From Clostridia bacterium (GTDB taxonomy: Bacteria > Bacillota > Clostridia > TANB77 > CAG-508), in contig JAFXPH010000006.1 of NCBI GenBank assembly GCA_017528085.1, forward strand, positions 4,376 to 68,375: DNA of 64,000 nt, in the 5' to 3' direction. Position 1 is the first letter of the stretch, and each line of letters opens with the position of its first letter. The notes under the pieces were generated by a model, which saw nothing but the letters and a program-made list of their open reading frames with translations, was not told the DNA's origin and made no database searches. This document shows positions 1,441 to 12,698 of this stretch, one piece after another. Made by a program: the position numbers and the translations under genes.

Positions 1441-1468
1441 ATTAAATGTACAAATGAAAGGAAATAAT

Positions 1469-2773
1469 ATGGATATTAAAAGTATTATTGTAAAGAAAAG
1501 AAGCAGAGATGTTTTAAATGACGATGAAATTAAATATTTCGTTTCAAAAATGACTAAAGGCGAAATAACTGAAGCTCAAATAGGAGCATTACTAAGTTAC
1601 ATCTACACAACTGGACTTACAGAACAAGAACTTGTATGTTTAGCTCAAGCAATGGCAAATTCAGGAGATAAAATAGATTTGTCAGATGTAGCAGATAACA
1701 TCGTTGACAAACACTCAACTGGCGGTGTTGGTGATAAAGTAACTTTAATACTTATACCAGTTATAGCTGCACTTGGAATTCCAGTAGGAAAGATATCTAG
1801 TAGAGGCTATGGTATTACAGGAGGAACACTGGATAAACTTGAATCTATTCCAGGATTTAATGTTAATATCTCAATTGAAGATTTTAAAAAGCAAGTTAAA
1901 GAAGTTGGAGCAAGTATAATAGGACAAAAGTTGAATCTAGCACCAGCAGAAACTATAATGTACAAAATCAGAAATCAAGTTGCTTGCCAAGATAGTCTTC
2001 CAATAATTGCTGCAAGTTTAATGAGTTTAAAATTAGCTACTGGAGCAAACAAGATAGTATTTGATATTACTTGTGGAAAAGGAACATATGTAAAAAATCT
2101 TGAAGAGGCAAGAAGACTTGGAAAACTTTTAATTAGGCTTGGAAAGAATTTAAAGAAAGATGTAGCTTGCATTATAACTGATATGGATGAACCACTTGGT
2201 TATTCAGTCGGTCATAATTTAGAGATAGAAGAAACAATTAATGCACTTAATGGAAAGATGCCAGAAGATTTAGGAAATGTTGTTGTTACTTTAGGTACAG
2301 TAATACTAAATCTAGTAAATGGCAAAAAGAATGATGAAGAGCATAAAGAAGCAATAAAAGAAGTACTTAGAAATGGTGCTGCATACGAGAAATTTAAAGA
2401 AATAGTAAAAGCCCAATCAGGTGATTTAAGCTATGTTGAAAATGTTGATAAATTTGAAAAAGCAAAATATATAGTACCAGTTTATGCAGAAAAAGATGGA
2501 ACTATAGAATCAGTTGATGCTGATATTGTAGGAAGTATAGCAATATATATAGGTGCTGGTAGAACAAAAGAAAACAATGAAGTAAATCATAGATCAGGAA
2601 TAACAATACTTAAGAAAAAAGGAGATCCAGTATCTACTGGAGAAACTTTAGCTTATATACATTCAGATGATGAATCTAAAATTAAAGGTGCAACTGAAAA
2701 TTTAAGAGATGCATTTAAAATTACTAATAAGAAAGTTCAGTTTAAATCAAATATTTTAGATATATTATATTAA
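1469..2773 (+). CDS. pdp: pyrimidine-nucleoside (thymidine) phosphorylase, copy 1
   Basis: DKHSTGGVGDK phosphate-binding motif, ~435 aa; RBS AAAGGAAA before ATG 1469 (ORF track start 1454 lacks RBS). Confidence 0.85.
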   Translation: MDIKSIIVKKRSRDVLNDDEIKYFVSKMTKGEITEAQIGALLSYIYTTGLTEQELVCLAQAMANSGDKIDLSDVADNIVDKHSTGGVGDKVTLILIPVIAALGIPVGKISSRGYGITGGTLDKLESIPGFNVNISIEDFKKQVKEVGASIIGQKLNLAPAETIMYKIRNQVACQDSLPIIAASLMSLKLATGANKIVFDITCGKGTYVKNLEEARRLGKLLIRLGKNLKKDVACIITDMDEPLGYSVGHNLEIEETINALNGKMPEDLGNVVVTLGTVILNLVNGKKNDEEHKEAIKEVLRNGAAYEKFKEIVKAQSGDLSYVENVDKFEKAKYIVPVYAEKDGTIESVDADIVGSIAIYIGAGRTKENNEVNHRSGITILKKKGDPVSTGETLAYIHSDDESKIKGATENLRDAFKITNKKVQFKSNILDILY

Positions 2774-2788
2774 TATTAAGGGGTACAT

Positions 2789-4093
2789 ATGAATATTATT
2801 GATATTATTGAAAAGAAAAAAATATCTAGAGAATTAACAAAGCAAGAAATAGAGTTTTTTATTAATGGTTATACAGATGGTTCAATTGCAGATTATCAAG
2901 CTGCTGCATTAATAATGGCTATATGTATAAATGGTATGACACAAAATGAAATCCTTAATTTAACATTAGCTATGGCAAACTCAGGAGAGACTTTGGATTT
3001 GTCAGAAATATCTGATAATATCGTTGATAAACATTCTACAGGAGGTGTTGGAGATAAAATAACTTTAATTTTATCACCAATTATAGCTGCACTTGGAGTT
3101 CCTGTTGCTAAGATGAGTGGAAGAGGATTAGGAATTACAGGAGGAACAGCTGATAAACTTCAATCAATACCTGGATACAATACAGAAATATCAATAGATG
3201 ATTTTAAGAGAAATGTAAAAGATATTGGTATAAGTTTAATTTCTCAAACATTAAACTTAGCACCAGCTGATAAAAAAATATATGCATTAAGAGATAGTAT
3301 AGGCTGTACTAACAGCATTCCTCTTATTGCATCAAGTATAATGAGTAAGAAAATTGCAGCTGGAGCAAGTAATATAGTTTTAGATGTTACTTGTGGAAGC
3401 GGTGCATTTATGAAAGATAGAAAAGAAGCTGAAAAATTAGCCAAGATGATGAATCTAATTGGAGAATGGGCTCATAGAACTACAATTAGTATAATAACTA
3501 ATATGGATGAACCACTAGGACATGCAGTAGGAAATTCTTTAGAAGTTGTTGAATCAATTAACTTCTTAAAAGGTGATATGCCAGAAGATGTAAAAGAAGT
3601 AGTATTTACAATGGGTTCATATATGCTTAAACTTGCAGGAAAAGGAAATGACTTAAAACAAAATAGAGAAAAAATTCAAGCAGTAATAGATAGTGGAGAA
3701 GCATTTGAAAAATTTAGAGAACTTGTTATAAGACAAGGCGGAGATGTTTCATTTATAGATAATCCTGAAAAGTTTGAAAAAGCTCCTATTATTGTTCCAG
3801 TAGTAAGTAGAAGAGAAGGATATGTTCAAAGTTTAAACGCTGAAGTAGTAGGAAAAGCCGGAGTTGAACTAGGCGTTGGAAGAAAGAAAAAAGAAGATTC
3901 TATAGATCCAAGACTAGGATTCATCTTTGTTAAGAAAACTGGCGATTATGTAGATGATAATGAAGTGTTAGCATATGTTCATGCACCTGATGCTGAAAGA
4001 GCAGAAGAGGCTGTAAATAGAATTTTAGAAGCATATGATATTAGTTCACTAAAGCAAATTAAGAAGAATAATATACTAGAAGTTTTATACTAA
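2789..4093 (+). CDS. pdp: pyrimidine-nucleoside (thymidine) phosphorylase, copy 2 (tandem paralog)
   Basis: same DKHSTGGVGDK motif and colinear similarity to the upstream gene; RBS AAGGGG. Confidence 0.85.
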   Translation: MNIIDIIEKKKISRELTKQEIEFFINGYTDGSIADYQAAALIMAICINGMTQNEILNLTLAMANSGETLDLSEISDNIVDKHSTGGVGDKITLILSPIIAALGVPVAKMSGRGLGITGGTADKLQSIPGYNTEISIDDFKRNVKDIGISLISQTLNLAPADKKIYALRDSIGCTNSIPLIASSIMSKKIAAGASNIVLDVTCGSGAFMKDRKEAEKLAKMMNLIGEWAHRTTISIITNMDEPLGHAVGNSLEVVESINFLKGDMPEDVKEVVFTMGSYMLKLAGKGNDLKQNREKIQAVIDSGEAFEKFRELVIRQGGDVSFIDNPEKFEKAPIIVPVVSRREGYVQSLNAEVVGKAGVELGVGRKKKEDSIDPRLGFIFVKKTGDYVDDNEVLAYVHAPDAERAEEAVNRILEAYDISSLKQIKKNNILEVLY

Positions 4094-5658: not shown

Positions 5659-5919
5659 ATGAAAAAAGTGACTATTTTTAAATTAAATTTAGATGCAATT
5701 TGGCAATTATATGTTTTGTTTGGATTACCAATTTTCTTTTTAGCTATGGTGGTTAGGTATGTAGCTATTAATAGAAAATCTAAGTTTTTAAAAAGGTGTT
5801 CAACAATTGTTATTATAATTTGTATACCACTTCTAGTCTTAAGTTTACTAGAAGCACTAGGTGTTGACACACATATTCCAATTTTTAATTATAGTTTATA
5901 TAATGTATTTGGAGAATAA
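5659..5919 (+). CDS. small two-TM membrane protein, unknown function
   Basis: 86-aa ORF with two hydrophobic helices; antisense ORF 5631..5870 judged spurious. Confidence 0.35.
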   Translation: MKKVTIFKLNLDAIWQLYVLFGLPIFFLAMVVRYVAINRKSKFLKRCSTIVIIICIPLLVLSLLEALGVDTHIPIFNYSLYNVFGE

Positions 5920-6098: not shown

Positions 6099-9000
6099 AT
6101 GAGTATTTTCTATGAAGAGGGTAATGAAGAAGAAGATGATGATTTAGACCCAAATAAGAAACAAAACGATGGTCAAGAAGATGAATCAAGTGAGTTTGAA
6201 GATGAGATTAGGGATAAATTAAAAGAAGAATTAAAGGAAAGAGATCAAGCAAAGAATCAGGAGCAAGCTAATAAAGACACTACTCAATCAAATCAAAATG
6301 GACAAGCTGAAGGTTCAAACAATACTCAAGGACAAGGAAATGGAACAGATTCTGCTCAAACTGGTTCTCAAAATGGACCACAAAATGGACCTCAAAGTGG
6401 ACCAGAAACGACTGGACAAGGACCAAGTACTTCAGGTACTACACCAAATGCTGCATCAGGTACAGCAAATGCAACTACTAATGCTACTAATGCAGGTGTT
6501 AATGCAGGAAGTAATGCAGCAGCTAGTACAACAGCAAGTACTGGAGCAGCTGGAACTGCAGGTGGAACTGCAGCAGCAGGTGCAGGTGGAGCAACAGCAG
6601 CAGGAGGAGCCGCAGCAGGAGGTTCAGCAGCAGCAGCTGGTGGAACTGCCGCAGCAGGTGCAGCTAGTGCCGGTGGAGCCGCAGCAGCAGGAGGTGCAGC
6701 AGCTGGTCTTGGAGTTGTACTATTCTGGGTATTAGTAGTTGCAATTATTTTATTTATTTTGATAGGTATAATTGCATTCTTATTAACAATGCCTGGTGTA
6801 GCATTGGCTAAATTAAAACAATTATTTGGAGTTTTGAAACAAGCCGTTGTAGCTTTCTTCGGTGGAGATACAACACAAATGATAGCTAACCAAGACATGT
6901 ATGATATTATGGATTACATAGAATCTATGGGTTATGACTTAAAAGGTGATGGATACTTAACTGAATTCTATGGAAGAGATTATTTAGCAAGTAGTGAATT
7001 TATAGATAGAATTAAACAAGATAACGAAGAAAGAGTAGAGAAAACTGGTGATACAAGTAAAAACTTACCAGAAGATACAACTGAAGGTTTTAGTTATGAA
7101 AACGGTGCAATAAGATATGGAGATAAGATAGCTGTTGCAGATAGTGATTTCTTAACTACATATATGATGAGTGATAACTATTGTTATACTGTAAAAAACT
7201 TTAACTTAGCTACTCAACAATCTGATGACAACTGGATTCAATCAATTTGGCATGGTATTGTAGCCCTTGCAGAAAAAGTTAATAGATGGGCCGCAAATCT
7301 AGTTGGGGCAAGTACAAAATCTGCTTCTAGATGGGGCAAGGGTATGATTTACCTAAAAGAAAGAAGTGCTTCTAGACAGAATGAATGGGATTGGGAAAAA
7401 CTTCCAGAATGGGCAAATGGATATACTTTATTCAAAGGTTCAAAAAGTGCTGAATTAGATGCAGGTGCACAAACTTTAACAATTAAAACAACGGAATGGT
7501 TTACATCAACTAAGATTGAATATTCACTTGAAGGTTGGACAGGCCGTTATGGTATGCCAATAGAATTCTTGCTTGCTATACATCAAGCAACAAGAATGCC
7601 TGACTTACCAATGAGTATGGTTGATTATTTCCCAACAACAATAAATATTGTATTAAATTCCGGAACAGTAGATGTTGATGCTATGGCTGTTGGTACTAAA
7701 GATACTCTAAGTAAAAGAGAAATTAAAGGTGACGGTTTATGGGATTGGCTTACTGGTGGAGGAGTAAATGAAATACAAATGTGTATAAAATATGGCTTCT
7801 GTGCTCCAGATTGTGAAGGAGTAGATGATAAAATCACAGGAGAACATGTTAATTGTTGTAATCAAACAATTCCTGAAGGTACAGACATAATGGAATATAC
7901 AGATCTTTCTATTTGCGATGCTTGTAAAACATATATGGATGGAATTACATCAGGAATTCAAGAGACAAATAGAGAAAATGCTGATACATATATACCATTT
8001 ATCCATAGCGTAAAAAATCATTGGTATAGAGATGTATTATTTGTAGCAAAGAGAGATAGCGAAGTAATAAATATTGATGATGATTATGAATTATTAATGG
8101 ATGAAAGATGGACTTTATACGATACAGATGATAATGGAAATACAATTTGGTATAAAGTTGACGAAAATGGAGAAACAACAAATGAAAAATGGAATGGAAC
8201 TAAAAAGGAAGCTCTAGAGGCTGGTGTAGCAGTTGCTAGAAAGGCTAAATTATCAAAACTAGAAGATAAATTTAAACCAGAAGGTTCAGATGACGAGAAA
8301 AATAAAGAGTTCCAAGGTGATTGGTGGACAGCATATTCATTTACTGATCAACAATCATCAGCTAAAGAAAAAGCATTCCCTGAGGAACCTCCAGAGAGTG
8401 GAAAAAGCCAAGTTTATTATGTTATGACTTTCACATCTGGTTATCCTAAACAATTAGAAGACGGTCAAAGAACAGAAACAAATAATATAATTAAAGATTT
8501 ATTCTTGAATAAATATTATTTGGCTTATAATGGTCAAGGGGATACAGCAGAAGAAATTTATAATTTAAGAAAAGAATTTTTAAGCAATAAGAGTTATAAT
8601 ACAGATCCAGAGTATGCAACAATGCCAGATGGTTCATATTATTATGGACCTATTCCAGATAATATGATTGAAAAAATGCTTACTACTACAGAGGCAGGCG
8701 GAAAGATTCTAAATAAAGAAGATGAGACATATGTAATGGCAAATCCTAACTATAATGCTCAACAGGAAGCAGTTTCAGGAGATGATCCTACAGCAGAAAA
8801 TGGAAATGTTTCTCATGAGAAATTAAACTTAGTAAATTACATTGCGCTACCTTCAGTAGACTCAAAAGCATTAGAAGCATTTACAATGTTAGAACATATG
8901 CATTCAGTTGATGCAGACTTTATTTATAAAGATTTTAAAGAATTAATAGTAGAACTTGGATATTTTGACAAAGAAGCATTAGCAGATCATATACCAGAGT

Positions 9001-11855
9001 TATTTGAATTTATAATTCCTGATATAGGATCAGGCGGTTTCCCAAAGAGAGAAATGGACAAGAGCGAACAATATGAAGGTACATTAGCACATTCAAAAGA
9101 GGACTATACAATTAATGAACAAAACACATTTGCTGCATTAGTTTCTACAATGACACCAGAGATTGACCCAGCATTATCAAAAGAGCAATACTTTAATGCT
9201 GTAAGTGATTTAAAATATGAAACAGAAGATGGTCAAACTATCGACCCTCAAGGAAAATCAAATCTATTCAGTGCGGCTGCTGCAGGAGATACAAATGCTG
9301 TACAAGGAGCAAGTGCATTTACAGCCGATAGTGAGACAACTGCTAAAACTTCATTTAGCAGACCAGTTGGAGCAAAAGTTAAAGGTGCTGCAAGATCTGT
9401 TGAATCTGTATCAATAGATGAATTCATAGAAGTTAACCAAGAAATGATAGACTACTGTATGCAAACAGGATATGATTATTGTGTATTAGTTGGTGATGCA
9501 GGTAATGGAGAACAAAATTGTAATCACGCACCAGTTCACGGAAATTCATGTAATTTACCAACATCATTTGAGAAGTCAAAAAATGGTGGTATACCAACTG
9601 CAAACTATTGTTGTGCTACATTGGTTTGCTGGGCACTTCAAAATGTTGAAGTTATTCCTGAATCTGACCATTTAGATGGTGCTGATTCACTTTGTGAATA
9701 TATTAAAAACGTATTAAATGCAGAAGTAATTCAAATAGGTGAACCATTAGAAGTTGGTGATATATTCTGCTATGATGGACATATTGACTATTTAGGTAAT
9801 GAAGACTCTGGTGGATTGATACTATTTAATGGTGGTCACTATTGTCCAATAGGATCTTCACTGGACTCAGATCATTCAGCATCACGTCACCAAAATGGTT
9901 GGCCAAGTGATGATAGATTAAAATTTGCATTAAGACTACCTTGGGGTGGTAAGAAGAAAGAACCTAAAAACTATGAAGGATTCATGGGAGGCGAAGCAGT
10001 AGTTTCACCAGTAACAGGTATTCTATTAGATTATGGTGTTTATGATGGTTCAATAACAAAGGAGACAAAGACAGTTGGCGAAGGAGATTTTGCTAACACA
10101 GTTGAAATACAACATGGACCAGACAGAGTAAACTTAAATAAATTATATCCTCCAATGGGATATCAATCAGTAATAGTTAACAAAAATAATGGAAAAGATA
10201 ATGATAATAATCAACCTGATACTCAAGTAACCACAGATGGACAAGAAGGAAAAGACCACATTGGTATGACACCAGAAGACATAGCAGAAACAACAGGTGG
10301 AGAGGTTGTAATAGATAAAGTTGCTTATGCTAAGATAATGACTTTAGATTATACTCATATTCAAAAGTTGGAAAATCACTTAGCTCACAATATACCACTA
10401 GCAGGAGGTGCGACATCACTTGTAAATTCAGAAGGTGGATTTGTTGAAGCAGATAAGATTAGTCCAGATAAGATAAGAGATTGGACAGATGATGAGATTA
10501 CATTATATGGCTATAAAGAGTTTGCAGAGTTATATTCAAAGTTTGGACTAGGTGGAACAATTATAACAATTGATGGATTTAAACCTGAAGCTCCAGTTGA
10601 AAAAGATGAAGAGGAAGAAGAGAAAACATATTCATCAGATCCAAGAGCTGAATATACAAATGTAAGTACAGAACCTCTAGGCGATGGTATTACACTTTCT
10701 AAATCATACTTTGCAAGTCAAAGTAAAGAATATAAGAAAACAAGATATGAACCTGATACAATCTATCAATTATCAACTGAAGCTGCTACAGATAAACAAA
10801 ATGCTGAAGCAACAATTAAGAAAGGTGCATATGCTATGTTAGCATATGGCGAAGATGAAATATATATTAAAGAAGGTACAGTTTTAGGTAGAACATATAC
10901 AAATAAAGAGTTTATAACAGAATGTAGAGATGGAGAATCATACGTAGATACTTATGATTCAAGAAAAGATCCAGATAATGAAGATGCTGCTACATTCTAT
11001 CAAAAGGATATGGATGGTAACTATATTAGAATAATAATGACTACATCAGATCAAACAACAGTAGAAAATGTTGAAGACTACATGAAGCTAGATGAAGTAG
11101 TTCATGACTTAGAAATCACAGATTGGTTATTATTCTACTGGATTCCATTTGAAGGTGGATGTACAAATACAACACCATATCAAGTAAAAGTAGTACAAAG
11201 ATATACAGGACCTTCATCAATAAGTACATGTTCAGAAGGTGAGGTTGCTATTGGTATTATCCAAGAGACAAGTTTGACAAGTAAAGGAATGTGTAACCAA
11301 AGAGATCAATTTGTACCATTCATGAAAAAGAATTATCCAGAAGTTTATAGCTACATTAGAGTTATGGATGGTAAAGATGCAAATTGGTGGTGGGAAGACT
11401 TTAATGGTGCTAACCAAGCACAAAAAGCAATTTCAGCATGTGATAAAGATATGCATGACTTATTACTAAAAGCAGAATTTGAAGAAGCAAAAGAGCACTA
11501 TTATAAGCCATTAATTGAGGAAATTCCATGGTTAGCATCAAAAAATGTTGCAGCTCAAGCTGAAATATTACACTTAAAAGTTTGGGGTGCAGATTATAAT
11601 GATATAACTGAAGGAATGTCAGATAAAGATTTAATAATGTATGCAAGAGAAAAAATCGCAACTACTTCTTCAACTGCAAACCAAAATCCAGATGGTGATA
11701 CAACTAAAGGTAGAGCATTTAATGAACCAGAGATTGGACTTGGTATTCTAGATGGAAGACTATCAGAAAGCGATATTGAAGAATTCGTAAAGACAGGTGA
11801 CTTTGGTATTATCACAAGTCATGGAGTTAAACAAGCTGGAGCTCAAACAAATTAA
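6099..11855 (+). CDS. giant (1918 aa) single-pass membrane protein: acidic + Ala/Gly/Asn/Gln-rich disordered N-terminal region, TM helix, large extracytoplasmic region with Cys-rich segment and CHAP/NlpC-P60-like Cys-His peptidase fold
   Basis: uninterrupted 5.7-kb ORF with AGAGGT RBS; TM at ~aa 240-275 (LGVVLFWVLVVAIILFILIGIIAFLL); motifs YCCATLVCWAL...GDIFCYDGHIDYLG resemble CHAP/peptidase C51 catalytic Cys and His. Confidence 0.75.
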   Translation: MSIFYEEGNEEEDDDLDPNKKQNDGQEDESSEFEDEIRDKLKEELKERDQAKNQEQANKDTTQSNQNGQAEGSNNTQGQGNGTDSAQTGSQNGPQNGPQSGPETTGQGPSTSGTTPNAASGTANATTNATNAGVNAGSNAAASTTASTGAAGTAGGTAAAGAGGATAAGGAAAGGSAAAAGGTAAAGAASAGGAAAAGGAAAGLGVVLFWVLVVAIILFILIGIIAFLLTMPGVALAKLKQLFGVLKQAVVAFFGGDTTQMIANQDMYDIMDYIESMGYDLKGDGYLTEFYGRDYLASSEFIDRIKQDNEERVEKTGDTSKNLPEDTTEGFSYENGAIRYGDKIAVADSDFLTTYMMSDNYCYTVKNFNLATQQSDDNWIQSIWHGIVALAEKVNRWAANLVGASTKSASRWGKGMIYLKERSASRQNEWDWEKLPEWANGYTLFKGSKSAELDAGAQTLTIKTTEWFTSTKIEYSLEGWTGRYGMPIEFLLAIHQATRMPDLPMSMVDYFPTTINIVLNSGTVDVDAMAVGTKDTLSKREIKGDGLWDWLTGGGVNEIQMCIKYGFCAPDCEGVDDKITGEHVNCCNQTIPEGTDIMEYTDLSICDACKTYMDGITSGIQETNRENADTYIPFIHSVKNHWYRDVLFVAKRDSEVINIDDDYELLMDERWTLYDTDDNGNTIWYKVDENGETTNEKWNGTKKEALEAGVAVARKAKLSKLEDKFKPEGSDDEKNKEFQGDWWTAYSFTDQQSSAKEKAFPEEPPESGKSQVYYVMTFTSGYPKQLEDGQRTETNNIIKDLFLNKYYLAYNGQGDTAEEIYNLRKEFLSNKSYNTDPEYATMPDGSYYYGPIPDNMIEKMLTTTEAGGKILNKEDETYVMANPNYNAQQEAVSGDDPTAENGNVSHEKLNLVNYIALPSVDSKALEAFTMLEHMHSVDADFIYKDFKELIVELGYFDKEALADHIPELFEFIIPDIGSGGFPKREMDKSEQYEGTLAHSKEDYTINEQNTFAALVSTMTPEIDPALSKEQYFNAVSDLKYETEDGQTIDPQGKSNLFSAAAAGDTNAVQGASAFTADSETTAKTSFSRPVGAKVKGAARSVESVSIDEFIEVNQEMIDYCMQTGYDYCVLVGDAGNGEQNCNHAPVHGNSCNLPTSFEKSKNGGIPTANYCCATLVCWALQNVEVIPESDHLDGADSLCEYIKNVLNAEVIQIGEPLEVGDIFCYDGHIDYLGNEDSGGLILFNGGHYCPIGSSLDSDHSASRHQNGWPSDDRLKFALRLPWGGKKKEPKNYEGFMGGEAVVSPVTGILLDYGVYDGSITKETKTVGEGDFANTVEIQHGPDRVNLNKLYPPMGYQSVIVNKNNGKDNDNNQPDTQVTTDGQEGKDHIGMTPEDIAETTGGEVVIDKVAYAKIMTLDYTHIQKLENHLAHNIPLAGGATSLVNSEGGFVEADKISPDKIRDWTDDEITLYGYKEFAELYSKFGLGGTIITIDGFKPEAPVEKDEEEEEKTYSSDPRAEYTNVSTEPLGDGITLSKSYFASQSKEYKKTRYEPDTIYQLSTEAATDKQNAEATIKKGAYAMLAYGEDEIYIKEGTVLGRTYTNKEFITECRDGESYVDTYDSRKDPDNEDAATFYQKDMDGNYIRIIMTTSDQTTVENVEDYMKLDEVVHDLEITDWLLFYWIPFEGGCTNTTPYQVKVVQRYTGPSSISTCSEGEVAIGIIQETSLTSKGMCNQRDQFVPFMKKNYPEVYSYIRVMDGKDANWWWEDFNGANQAQKAISACDKDMHDLLLKAEFEEAKEHYYKPLIEEIPWLASKNVAAQAEILHLKVWGADYNDITEGMSDKDLIMYAREKIATTSSTANQNPDGDTTKGRAFNEPEIGLGILDGRLSESDIEEFVKTGDFGIITSHGVKQAGAQTN
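6440..6720 (+). repeat. GC-rich low-complexity tract (GCA/GGT/GGA codon runs encoding poly Ala/Gly/Thr) inside the giant gene
   Basis: runs such as GCAGCAGCAGG / GGTGGAGC repeated; locally much higher GC than the surrounding AT-rich DNA. Confidence 0.7.
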
Positions 11856-11862
11856 TATATAA

Positions 11863-11897
11863 AAAGAAATGACAGAAATGTCATTTCTTTTTTTATG
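11863..11897 (+). terminator. rho-independent terminator
   Basis: AGAAATGACA-GAAA-TGTCATTTCT hairpin + T-run. Confidence 0.75.
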
Positions 11898-11971
11898 TTT
11901 TTAAAAAATAATATAGCTATTTTTTTTCAATTAGTATACAATATTTGTGAGATTAAATTAGGAGAATTAAT

Positions 11972-12652
11972 ATGAGTAGTAAAAATAATGAAGAAAAAAT
12001 GAAAAATGTTAAAGGATTAATATTATTTCTTGTAATACTTCTAGTTGTTTTAGTTGTTTATAGAATTATTCATGTAAGTACTGTAGATAAACAATTACGT
12101 TATTTAAATAGTGCAAATATAGAAGAAGGTACTATAGGAATAAGTAATATGTATGCCTTTGGTATGAAATATAATGGAGATGTTGAATTAGGTACTATAG
12201 ACAAAACAGTTTATTATTTTGCATCTGAACTAGCTCCGGAATACAAAAATATTGACGATATTGAAAAATACTATAATAGAAACGTAGATAAAATCACAAG
12301 ATATTTAGGAGTTGCTAATGTCGAAGATTTCAGCAAAGTAGTTAAAAGCTTACAAGCACTACCAGTAAGTGATTTAAAAGTTAAATCTATAAAATGCTAT
12401 GAATCTTCTATAAAAAGTAGAAAACTAAGTACAGCCATGACAGTTGGAATTGAATTTGAAGGATTAGATGACTATTATTTGATAGACGTTGATGTATTAG
12501 ATAAATCCTTATCAAATAGTGAATCTTCTGTAAAAATTTCTAGAAATTATGCTACAGATGTAGTTTACAATACTTCAGTAAAAGAAGAATTCGTAGAGGA
12601 TAAGATGAATAATAAAGTAATATATATGGAAACAACAGGTAGAGTTCATTAA
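11972..12652 (+). CDS. single-pass membrane protein with extracytoplasmic domain, unknown function (partner of giant protein?)
   Basis: 226-aa ORF, AGGAGAA RBS, N-terminal TM LILFLVILLVVLVVY. Confidence 0.55.
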   Translation: MSSKNNEEKMKNVKGLILFLVILLVVLVVYRIIHVSTVDKQLRYLNSANIEEGTIGISNMYAFGMKYNGDVELGTIDKTVYYFASELAPEYKNIDDIEKYYNRNVDKITRYLGVANVEDFSKVVKSLQALPVSDLKVKSIKCYESSIKSRKLSTAMTVGIEFEGLDDYYLIDVDVLDKSLSNSESSVKISRNYATDVVYNTSVKEEFVEDKMNNKVIYMETTGRVH

Positions 12653-12698
12653 TAAAAAAAAAAGCCTTTAAGCTTTTGCTTAAAGGCTTTTTTGCTTT
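12653..12698. terminator. bidirectional rho-independent terminator
   Basis: AAAGCCTTTAAGC/GCTTAAAGGCTTT hairpin flanked by A-run and T-run; sits between convergent genes. Confidence 0.75.

Follow-up and report, generated by a model that had tools for sequence, protein, structure and literature searches.

The 64-kb window, by which we mean the whole stretch of DNA analysed, holds a gene for a 1918-aa protein (the giant) followed by a gene for a small membrane protein (the partner), and the question that this pair raises is what a protein of such size does at the cell envelope. The initial annotation had read the giant as a membrane-anchored CHAP/NlpC-P60-like protein, an overall interpretation that the present analysis supports in part. 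The ORF at positions 6099 to 11855 of the plus strand runs from ATG to TAA over 1918 codons with zero internal stops, as seen in the ORF listing and translation, and a GAGG ribosome-binding site lies upstream. Eleven assembled contigs, independent of one another and derived from different sequencing runs, code for this same 1918-aa product, which rules out a frameshift or an assembly error, and the intact frame described initially stands. The features of the locus are as follows.

6099..11855, plus strand: giant gene, 1918 codons plus stop (ORF; 11 contigs)
6099..6704, plus strand: predicted cytoplasmic head, residues 1-202, with an acidic N terminus and then Ala/Gly/Thr/Asn/Gln low complexity (composition)
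6546-6707, plus strand: imperfect GCA-rich repeats coding for the poly-Ala/Gly part of the head (tandem-repeat analysis)
6705..6791, plus strand: single TM anchor, residues 203-231 (hydropathy, family consensus)
After the TM anchor, plus strand: conserved TMPG motif, then an amphipathic helix (family consensus)
6816..7658, plus strand: conserved scaffold region A, residues 240-520 (invariant GWTGRYGxP...H...PDL motif)
7659..7925, plus strand: variable Cys-rich insert, residues 521-609, with Cys at 562, 568, 572, 586, 587, 606 and 609 (homologue coverage falls; moderate model confidence)
7926..9107, plus strand: conserved scaffold region B, residues 610-1003 (PYI..V..HWYRDVYF and LENxHTxDADYIYRDFKELIVELGYF motifs)
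9108..9413, plus strand: low-confidence linker, residues 1004-1105 (pLDDT <50 in model 2; low homologue coverage)
9414..9935, plus strand: predicted NlpC/P60-CHAP-type papain-like peptidase module, residues 1106-1279
9612-9614, 9780-9782 and 9828-9830, plus strand: codons of peptidase residues Cys1172, His1228 and Asn1244, respectively
9951..11096, plus strand: conserved scaffold region C, residues 1285-1666 (mixed alpha/beta; residues ~1346-1390 form a disordered loop rich in Asn and Asp)
11097..11852, plus strand: predicted C-terminal lysozyme-superfamily (GH46 chitosanase/VgrG3C-like) module, residues 1667-1918
11151-11153 and 11241-11243, plus strand: codons of lysozyme-module residues Glu1685 and Glu1715, respectively
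11861..11892, plus strand: terminator-like hairpin right after the giant stop codon, weak, with 3 G-C pairs
11972..12652, plus strand: partner gene, 226 aa, coding for an N-terminal TM helix and a ~190-aa ectodomain
12658..12693, no strand assigned: bidirectional terminator-like hairpin of 16 pairs, separating the cassette from a convergent TetR gene

The composition of the giant agrees with the acidic N terminus, low-complexity stretch, single TM helix, and Cys-rich segments that had been described. Residues 1 to 60 are 23% Glu and 17% Asp, residues 60 to 200 are 29% Ala, 23% Gly, and 15% Thr, the single hydrophobic stretch is residues 203 to 231, and Cys residues cluster at 562 to 609 and 1120 to 1177. 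With this arrangement, the giant would be a type II (N-in) anchored protein whose single TM helix holds the ectodomain on the outer side of the membrane. The ectodomain is very acidic (net charge -134) and large, as first claimed, its measured length of ~1,686 residues being slightly above the ~1640 given before. The terminator noted earlier corresponds to the hairpin at 11861-11892, whereas a dedicated promoter found no backing: the region has 44 sigma-70-like matches, against 43 expected by chance. An upstream 86-aa membrane ORF was considered as a third component and rejected, having no homologue beside other giants.

Next, we examined what the ectodomain is made of. The giant gave no matches to Pfam, either as the whole protein or as 8 segments at E <= 10, and searches of NCBIfam, PHROGs, PDB sequences by phmmer, and the PDB by family profile were all negative. 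Regions A, B, and C comprise ~1,150 residues without recognisable relatives, and ~60% of the ectodomain lacks a recognisable fold, a point that the first reading had missed. Region B was present in 166 of the 166 non-identical giants examined, and no structural relatives of it were found; a search with nine diverse family scaffolds likewise gave no matches. Region C was considered as an M23/LytM domain and rejected, as it did not show profile similarity to bona fide M23 domains. Scaffold relatives were also absent from 2.9 million viral contigs, 50,697 phage records, and 72,556 plasmids. The three scaffold regions are lineage-specific, and because their fold cannot be assigned, they offer a new structure to solve.

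Residues 1106 to 1279 contain the motif YCCATLVCWAL...GDIFCYDGH...NGGH, and structure prediction gives this segment a papain-like alpha+beta fold, as the proposed Cys-His core required. Cys1172 (model residue 78) is the first residue of helix 78-88, His1228 (model residue 134) is the first of strand 134-142, and Asn1244 (model residue 150) is the last of strand 145-150, so that the model has the Cys at the start of a helix, the His on a strand, and the third, polar residue on the strand that follows. These residues are conserved in 88, 90, and 83 (N or D) of 93 sequences, respectively, and an upstream C/H cluster (C1128, C1141, H1143, H1147, and C1151) is conserved together with the module. 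Cys1172 and His1228 are likely the catalytic residues; the annotated pair, placed at Cys~1175 and His~1225, is therefore present, at positions close to those guessed. The Pfam profiles PF05257, PF00877, and PF13529 found nothing in the giant, even at E <= 10. Against a CHAP cutoff of 26 bits, relatives P0053 and P0072 score 30.9 and 31.5 bits, respectively, and their CHAP-matching columns align to giant residues 1169 to 1244. Thus, the assignment to the NlpC/P60-CHAP type depends upon the structure and upon these CHAP-matching relatives, and the CHAP/NlpC-P60 identity first proposed holds on both counts, although Pfam CHAP, NlpC/P60, and SLT do not detect it in the giant itself. On its modelled structure, the segment is an NlpC/P60-CHAP-type papain-like peptidase module with predicted activity. 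In structure comparison, its fold also matches Tae/Tse amidase effectors.

The C-terminal module has a predicted two-lobed, mainly helical lysozyme/chitosanase fold that matches VgrG3C, a peptidoglycan-degrading effector of the type VI secretion system (T6SS), in structure comparison. This second catalytic module had gone unnoticed in the initial annotation. Glu1685 (97% conserved, on model helix 589-592) and Glu1715 (91% conserved, on model strand 621-624) occupy plausible positions in the model for the candidate catalytic carboxylates. No sequence-profile match links the module to Vibrio cholerae VgrG3 or to GH46 chitosanases, and, unlike VgrG3, the giant has neither a T6SS nor a TsiV3-like immunity protein. 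We also considered whether the module is a divergent form of the Phage_lysozyme2 or Hydrolase_2 modules of relatives. HHalign probabilities of <=1.8% rejected this, which indicates that there is no sequence-level relation and that the C terminus of the giant represents a true module replacement. In the family as a whole, one conserved scaffold carries at least seven unrelated C-terminal and three middle lytic module types. The family is thereby a natural example of lytic cartridge swapping on a conserved scaffold, and its catalytic modules, taken in isolation, are candidates for new lysins.

The partner (MBR3512182.1, locus tag IKN74_04405, labelled "hypothetical protein" at NCBI) has one N-terminal TM helix and no match among Pfam or PDB sequences. 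A profile of its family found no VirB8-like protein among PDB sequences, the best relevant hit being an NTF2-like domain at E 0.75. One HMM describes the partner family (74 ORFs), which lies within 500 nt downstream of 62 of 91 giants, bearing out the idea of a conserved single-pass partner of 226 aa. A Spearman comparison of the giant and partner similarity matrices (rho 0.02) was uninformative because most partner pairs fall below BLAST detection, and it was replaced by best-hit agreement: the best matches of giant and partner are concordant in 26 of 61 pairs, against ~1 of 60 by chance. Giants with any of the middle or C-terminal module types are followed by this one partner family. Therefore, the partner is no immunity protein tied to a particular module, and no immunity gene co-varying with the toxin module, as in polymorphic toxin systems, was found. 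Two further identities were rejected: a duplicated piece of the giant (HHalign probability <=0.3%) and a type IV pilin of the Tad-type pilus cluster published for TANB77, which is a different system; a class III signal motif is absent from the partner consensus. The partner has the position, size, and topology expected of a VirB8-like (PrgL-type) bitopic protein and may be one.

To place the pair, we examined its relatives. The giants form a previously undescribed and entirely unannotated family of at least 729 clusters at 50% identity from uncultured gut Clostridia, known among named records from the order TANB77 only. This order is prevalent in human and animal guts and has been linked to immunotherapy response. 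Its members are uncultured and have reduced genomes (PMC11680825). Among relatives, giants occur at the end of a type IV secretion system (T4SS)-like cluster with the order VirB2-like pilin array, PrgI/VirB3, TraC-like, VirB4, six unknown genes, giant, and partner. Pfam scores for this cluster are 27.0 bits for T4SS_pilin and 25.8 bits for PrgI, and those for VirB4 are 52.9 (P-loop_TraG), 37 (AAA_10), and 30.8 bits (DUF87); the terminal 1330-aa and 206-aa genes are confirmed members of the giant and partner families. VirB4 was found in 11 relatives' loci and other genes of this cluster (the T cluster) in 25. Tandem TrbC/T4SS_pilin genes accompany PrgI and VirB4, with no relaxase or coupling protein in view. 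In distant genomes, the T cluster is flanked by LCP, PBP5, and ComEA-like genes. The window itself contains no VirB4, pilin, PrgI, or other T-cluster genes, and no ftsE or ftsX. The earlier remark that the giant is not flanked by T4SS genes thus holds within these 64 kb and fails for deep-branching relatives, which lie inside a VirB2/VirB3/VirB4 cluster.

In a midpoint-rooted neighbor-joining tree without bootstrap support, every deep branch is embedded in the T cluster, the ftsEX arrays are nested in one clade, and the window copy is sister to the sole locus having both T-cluster and ftsEX contexts. The T cluster adjoins ftsEX in locus L003. Most family members in the sampled reference genomes lie outside the T cluster in arrays adjoining ftsEX; this predominance hints at a different current role and counts against a T4SS assignment. 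The cytoplasmic head also varies across the family (median ~56 aa, maximum 265 aa). A long acidic head was rejected as a marker of T4SS-embedded copies, head length being unlinked to context class.

Because deep-branching relatives lie inside the VirB2/VirB3/VirB4 cluster, the closest comparison is PrgK, although it had initially been set aside. PrgK of pCF10, TraG of pIP501, CwlT of ICEBs1, and TcpG of pCW3 are the VirB1-class hydrolases of Gram-positive conjugation. The giant has the domain combination of this class: an N-terminal TM anchor, an extracytoplasmic glycan-cleaving domain, and a CHAP/NlpC-P60-type peptidase, with a small single-pass membrane protein that follows or cooperates. 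Its deep-branching relatives share the equivalent position in the VirB2/VirB3/VirB4 cluster. Unlike this class, the giant is 2 to 8 times larger, with its ~1,150 scaffold residues of no known fold, has a GH46/VgrG3C-like instead of an SLT/GH23 glycosidase, is ordered peptidase and then glycosidase, has no sequence-level link to PrgK, TraG, or CD419 in that Pfam SLT and CHAP miss it, and belongs to a chromosomal, multicopy, module-swapping family. PrgK itself is TM anchored, has LytM, SLT, and CHAP domains, and binds PrgL, and no in vitro activity was seen for its CHAP domain (PMC11323569).

A second parallel is found in Patescibacteria, where a chromosomal T4SS without a relaxase has arrays of pilin genes and, after virB4, peptidase and lysozyme genes that are essential (PMC12102498). 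This MPF-FATA-derived system resembles the relatives' cluster in being chromosomal, in its pilin array, and in its wall-hydrolase genes after virB4 (PMC12102498). The likeness consists of shared Pfam families, and both host lineages are uncultured with reduced genomes. In contrast to that system, the host here is a clostridial lineage (TANB77), and the wall hydrolase takes the form of one very large TM-anchored fusion protein that has its own partner. Through the giants, a chromosomal T4SS-like system of Clostridia that had not been described becomes accessible, a counterpart of the system that Patescibacteria need for their epibiotic life.

We hold, with somewhat more belief than doubt, that the giant is a membrane-tethered bifunctional wall hydrolase that ancestrally belonged to a T4SS-like apparatus. 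In this model, the scaffold would carry two catalytic cartridges, of which the Cys1172/His1228/Asn1244 peptidase would cut the peptide stems or cross-links of peptidoglycan and the Glu1685/Glu1715 GH46/VgrG3C-like glycosidase would cut the glycan strand. The partner would be an obligate companion throughout the family and, judged from its topology and the location of its gene, would stand to the giant as PrgL does to PrgK; it most probably binds the part of the scaffold close to the membrane and may position or restrain the enzyme. The ancestral home would be the 3' end of the chromosomal cluster of T4SS-like genes, in which a relaxase was not seen; there, the giant may have acted as a VirB1/PrgK-type enzyme, making local openings in the thick wall for an apparatus that spans the envelope. 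The copy in this window would be a paralogous cassette that has come away from the cluster and lies among housekeeping genes, and it may still make local, tethered breaches in peptidoglycan, either for the apparatus or in general remodelling. Since T-cluster genes are absent from the window, any T4SS-like service by this copy must be in trans. If the giants act on the cell's own wall, they would represent an unusual membrane-tethered solution to wall remodelling. An S-layer-associated enzyme, suggested at first, is without support.

The ftsEX arrays raise an alternative that we consider unlikely, namely, that giant and partner are a housekeeping divisome autolysin, tethered to the membrane and acting at the septum or in cell separation, that works or is co-regulated with FtsEX and the PcsB-like M23 hydrolases, and that any T4SS link is historical. 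Adjacency to ftsEX is limited to one nested, derived clade of relatives and may descend from a T cluster adjoining ftsEX, as in L003, and the window copy lies away from ftsEX. Tandem amplification with swapped, unrelated lytic modules would be unusual in a core division enzyme. Furthermore, PcsB, CwlO, and RipC are secreted proteins of ~350 to 470 aa with a coiled coil that docks to FtsX, whereas the giant is TM anchored, has a second catalytic domain, and shows no evident coiled-coil FtsX-binding module, with no match to CC_PcsB or other coiled-coil Pfam families. The giant thus does not fall among the FtsEX-activated hydrolases.

Quite improbable in our estimate is a contact-dependent weapon or feeding tool against foreign walls, the kind of effector suggested in the initial annotation, whose long ectodomain would carry exchangeable cartridges suited to differing types of foreign peptidoglycan, possibly along with a T4SS-like pilus, in a host-dependent or epibiotic lifestyle resembling that of Patescibacteria. 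The diversity of lytic types in tandem arrays, with up to ~9 copies per MAG, would suit such a role, as would the much faster evolution of the giants (25 to 57% identical, versus 81 to 100% for adjacent VirB4) and the matches of the two folds to VgrG3C and Tae/Tse effectors. TANB77 bacteria are, moreover, uncultured with reduced genomes (PMC11680825), and in Saccharibacteria a relaxase-less chromosomal T4SS with peptidase and lysozyme genes is essential to epibiotic growth (PMC12102498). However, the giant is TM anchored, and no signal for its release or delivery was identified. Genes resembling immunity genes are not evident either, and one partner family serves all lytic modules and is hence no cognate immunity protein. 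There is also no direct evidence of TANB77 cells attaching to other bacteria, and the wall of a single organism can require several bond specificities. A related proposal, which we rate as equally doubtful, is that TANB77 has a chromosomal, relaxase-less T4SS-like pilus machine, akin to the one of epibiotic Patescibacteria, with giants as exchangeable heads acting on foreign walls for attachment, DNA or nutrient gain, or killing. The scaffold would then be a new platform docking the cartridges, the partner a membrane adaptor, and detached copies such as the window giant a means to widen the range of target walls. Were this true, it would bear on why TANB77 resists cultivation.

That the giant is a mobile-element lysin, such as a hydrolase of a conjugative ICE or plasmid, or a lysin from a phage tail or tape measure, kept as cargo or remnant, is very improbable, given the scaffold's absence from viral, phage, and plasmid records, the lack of PHROG matches, the lack of an integrase, relaxase, coupling protein, or phage gene around the window copy or in the 10 kb on either side of the T cluster, and a GC content raised only mildly, by Ala/Gly codons. 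Judged from these records, the family appears to be chromosomal rather than mobile.

Copies number up to ~9 per MAG, and the family can take up as much as ~45 kb of TANB77 genomes of ~1.8 Mb. This copy number, together with the seven or more C-terminal modules, is seemingly more than one secretion apparatus needs.

The giant, a 1918-aa membrane-anchored protein, and its partner, a 226-aa protein, lie in the window as follows.

6099-11855, + strand: giant ORF, 1918 codons with zero internal stops and a GAGG ribosome-binding site upstream
11972-12652, + strand: partner ORF, 226 aa with an AGGAG site, downstream of the giant gene
Window neighbors: RNase HII, two PYNP genes, M18 aminopeptidase, TetR, a radical SAM gene, Mfd, SpoU methylase, PepF and a response regulator

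The initial annotation would have been undermined by an interrupted or frameshifted ORF. The ORF is uninterrupted, and because 11 contigs, each assembled independently and drawn from several sequencing runs, encode the identical 1918-aa product, a frameshift or assembly artifact is excluded. Composition analysis confirmed the acidic N terminus, the Ala/Gly/Thr/Asn/Gln low-complexity stretch (partly encoded by imperfect GCA-rich repeats), the single hydrophobic helix (residues 203 to 231) and the Cys clusters (562 to 609 and 1120 to 1177). After the giant gene, where a terminator was proposed, there is a weak terminator-like hairpin, and a strong bidirectional one follows the partner gene. However, promoter-like matches were at chance level (44 observed versus 43 expected), so the claim of a dedicated promoter is unsupported. 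Immediately 5' of the giant gene is a small 86-aa hydrophobic ORF (5659-5919) followed by its own terminator-like hairpin; because it had no homologue adjoining other giants, it is probably outside the cassette. Also 5' of the cassette are two pyrimidine-nucleoside phosphorylase genes in tandem, paralogues of 439 and 434 aa (1454-4093).

Per-segment HMM searches for CHAP, NlpC/P60 and SLT domains were blank. Neither the whole giant nor eight overlapping segments matched Pfam, NCBIfam or PHROGs even at an E value of ≤10, and PDB sequences matched neither the giant nor a 50-sequence family profile. The partner was equally blank at the sequence level and is labeled "hypothetical protein [Clostridia bacterium]" by NCBI. 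Using family alignments, we built AlphaFold2 models, which were good for residues 1095 to 1918 (mean pLDDT 78; catalytic domains mostly >90) and coherent for residues 232 to 1100 (pTM 0.70). In the model, a helix starts at Cys1172, a strand starts at His1228 and the next strand ends at Asn1244, a papain-like arrangement close to the Cys-His dyad predicted near residues 1175 and 1225. Of 93 sequences, 88 conserve Cys1172, 90 conserve His1228 and 83 conserve position 1244 (N or D), and His1228 is invariant across a 50-sequence alignment covering different module types. The predicted fold and modeled catalytic geometry are those of clan CA NlpC/P60-CHAP peptidases, as the initial annotation proposed, but the query matches none of their sequence models. 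In relatives above the Pfam CHAP or C39_2 thresholds, the matching columns align with query residues 1158 to 1245. The C-terminal domain is predicted to have a lysozyme/chitosanase fold with plausible candidate catalytic residues, Glu1685 in a helix (97% conserved) and Glu1715 in the next strand (91%). By inference, the reading of the giant as a membrane-tethered enzyme that would act on peptidoglycan is well supported: its cysteine peptidase and its lysozyme-fold glycosidase both have intact conserved catalytic residues.

Just before the catalytic Cys, a C...C.H...H...C cluster (C1128, C1141, H1143, H1147 and C1151; window 9480-9551, residues 1128 to 1151) is co-conserved. Because it is all-or-none across family members, it may be a metal site or a disulfide knot gating the active site.

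A word-indexed search recovered 86 clusters of proteins of 1,250 to 2,040 aa (two shorter, at 968 and 1,058 aa), nearly all metagenomic and unnamed. An exhaustive profile search with conserved regions A and B gave 729 clusters (50% identity) at an E value of ≤1e-3, 451 of them at ≤1e-30. When one genome per species was scanned, all 63 loci were in uncultured gut Clostridia MAGs, from rabbit, sheep, mouse, chicken and human. The genomes include Clostridium sp. CAG:571 as well as Ca. Scatovivens and Ca. Merdicola. The latter two belong to family CAG-508 of order TANB77 (PMC13106387), a clade of uncultured, reduced-genome bacteria (PMC11680825). The query is only 35 to 44% identical to its best relatives.

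Mapping with BLAST and jackhmmer set the module boundaries of the giant.

N-terminal: variable cytoplasmic head, ~200 aa in the query (family median, ~56 aa)
Next: TM helix, then a conserved TMPG motif
Residues 240-520: conserved region A
Residues 521-609: variable Cys-rich insert
Residues 610-1003: conserved region B
Between region B and the middle module: linker
Residues 1106-1279: variable middle module
Residues 1285-1666: conserved region C
Residues 1667-1918: variable C-terminal module

Among 166 non-identical giants, the middle module came in three types (the query's, n = 93; Peptidase_C39_2, n = 36; and a third related to the query's) and the C-terminal module in at least seven, none of which HHalign could relate to another; Phage_lysozyme2 and Hydrolase_2 are among these seven or more types. 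By these comparisons, lytic modules are exchanged as cartridges on a scaffold that stays constant.

The initial annotation also suggested the downstream gene as a partner, and co-occurrence bore this out: for 62 of 91 giants, a member of its family lies no more than 500 nt downstream, and contig ends truncate 6 more. A single HMM family covers the partners: 74 ORFs with a median length of 198 aa, all carrying an N-terminal TM helix. No segment of the giant resembles the partner. Best hits agreed between a giant and its own partner in 26 of 61 pairs (chance, ~1/60), so the cassettes diverge as units. A module-specific immunity protein was considered; however, a single partner family accompanies giants of every lytic module type, which argues instead for a partner that would bind the conserved scaffold. 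The giant:partner ratio is not strictly 1:1, since some arrays read G-p-p-G-G-G. Genomes differ greatly in copy number (loci L017, L018, L034, L039, L022, L025, L046 and L050), and the Tb.RUG.39 MAG carries ~9 giants across 6 contigs.

Two genomic contexts recur. In class F, one to four tandem cassettes lie directly 5' of ftsE-ftsX, two CC_PcsB+M23 genes and ctpB, with the cassette ending 94 to 486 nt upstream at 20 distinct ftsE loci. In class T (25 loci), the giant-partner pair ends a conserved T4SS-like cluster, the T cluster, whose full order is as follows.

L074 (6737-21962) and L075: four tandem TrbC/T4SS_pilin genes, PrgI, TraC-like, VirB4-type ATPase, six unannotated genes, giant, partner

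The cluster also occurs in TANB77 chromosomes at L072, L073, L070, L058 and L064 to L066. At L072, Pfam scores were 27.0 bits for T4SS_pilin (cutoff, 26.6), 25.8 for PrgI (cutoff, 27) and, for the ATPase, 52.9 (P-loop_TraG), 37 (AAA_10) and 30.8 (DUF87). The two genes that end the cluster, of 1330 aa and 206 aa, were confirmed as members of the giant and partner families (region A, E = 2.9e-55; region B, E = 1.5e-57; partner HMM, E = 1.2e-30). LCP, PBP5 and a ComEA-like gene flank the cluster, and no relaxase, coupling protein or integrase was found within ±10 kb. In a neighbor-joining tree of regions A and B from 83 giants (no bootstrap, midpoint root), every deep branch on both sides of the root was a T-class copy, and class F was a single nested radiation. 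The window giant was sister to the two giants of L003, which alone among the loci combines T-cluster genes upstream with ftsE downstream. The 64-kb window held no T-cluster, VirB4, ftsE or ftsX homologues; the statement that the giant is not flanked by T4SS genes is therefore right for the window but not for its class T relatives.

Among known enzymes, the nearest are the VirB1/PrgK-class wall hydrolases of Gram-positive T4SSs. PrgK has a TM anchor and LytM, SLT and CHAP domains, and its binding partner is the small bitopic protein PrgL (PMC11323569); ancestral members of the giant's family sit at the corresponding place in a VirB2/VirB3/VirB4 cluster, with a small bitopic partner downstream. 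Because the query shares the domain architecture of this class but only its relatives lie inside a T4SS cluster, it should be described as working like, and descending from, a PrgK-class hydrolase and not as a T4SS component in this genome. The relatives' cluster also resembles the relaxase-less chromosomal T4SS of Patescibacteria, which carries pilin arrays and has peptidase and lysozyme genes just 3' of virB4 that are essential for epibiotic growth (PMC12102498).

The window copy is a detached cassette that, in the favored though uncertain reading, would breach the wall locally, either acting in trans for the T4SS-like apparatus or contributing to general remodeling. The ftsEX arrays of relatives would fit a division autolysin, which we consider unlikely here. 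An outward-directed weapon or feeding role, consistent with module swapping, copy number and rapid divergence, is slightly less likely again. A mobile-element lysin is very improbable; searches of viral contigs, phage records and plasmids gave no relatives of the scaffold.

The catalytic folds were already known, as was the principle of a TM-anchored protein that combines two wall-hydrolase activities and has a small partner. New features are a giant scaffold to which no fold can be assigned, cartridge swapping, a partner family that is obligate, and tandem arrays adjoining ftsEX. Also new is the restriction of the family to TANB77, together with its link to a chromosomal T4SS-like system of Clostridia that had gone undescribed.

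Between loci, the ATPase of that system is 81 to 100% identical, versus 25 to 57% for giants and 23 to 40% for partners, an extreme rate disparity inside one cluster (L072:2239-4215 versus L072:10001-13927). The ATPase matched 7,019 database proteins at an E value of ≤1e-20, the best 120 clusters being 80 to 97% identical. Directly 5' of the pilin array is a ComEA-like gene with SLBB and HHH_3 DNA-binding domains (L074:5708-6355). Because of this adjacency, the machine could possibly be used for DNA uptake, by analogy with the ComB system of Helicobacter. A paralogous family of large unannotated proteins (~400 to 1,350 aa; ~60 ORFs at 24 loci) also occurs with the giants in the T cluster (for example, L072:4233-7462, L072:16276-19878 and L003:1-7610), one with a weak T4SS_pilin-like segment (E = 6.7e-5). 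Downstream of the cluster, distant genomes share ~1,500-aa proteins with a weak CLIPPER domain match and a PBP5-type carboxypeptidase (L070:18611-23077 and L072:21962-23927), which suggests a conserved chromosomal envelope island.
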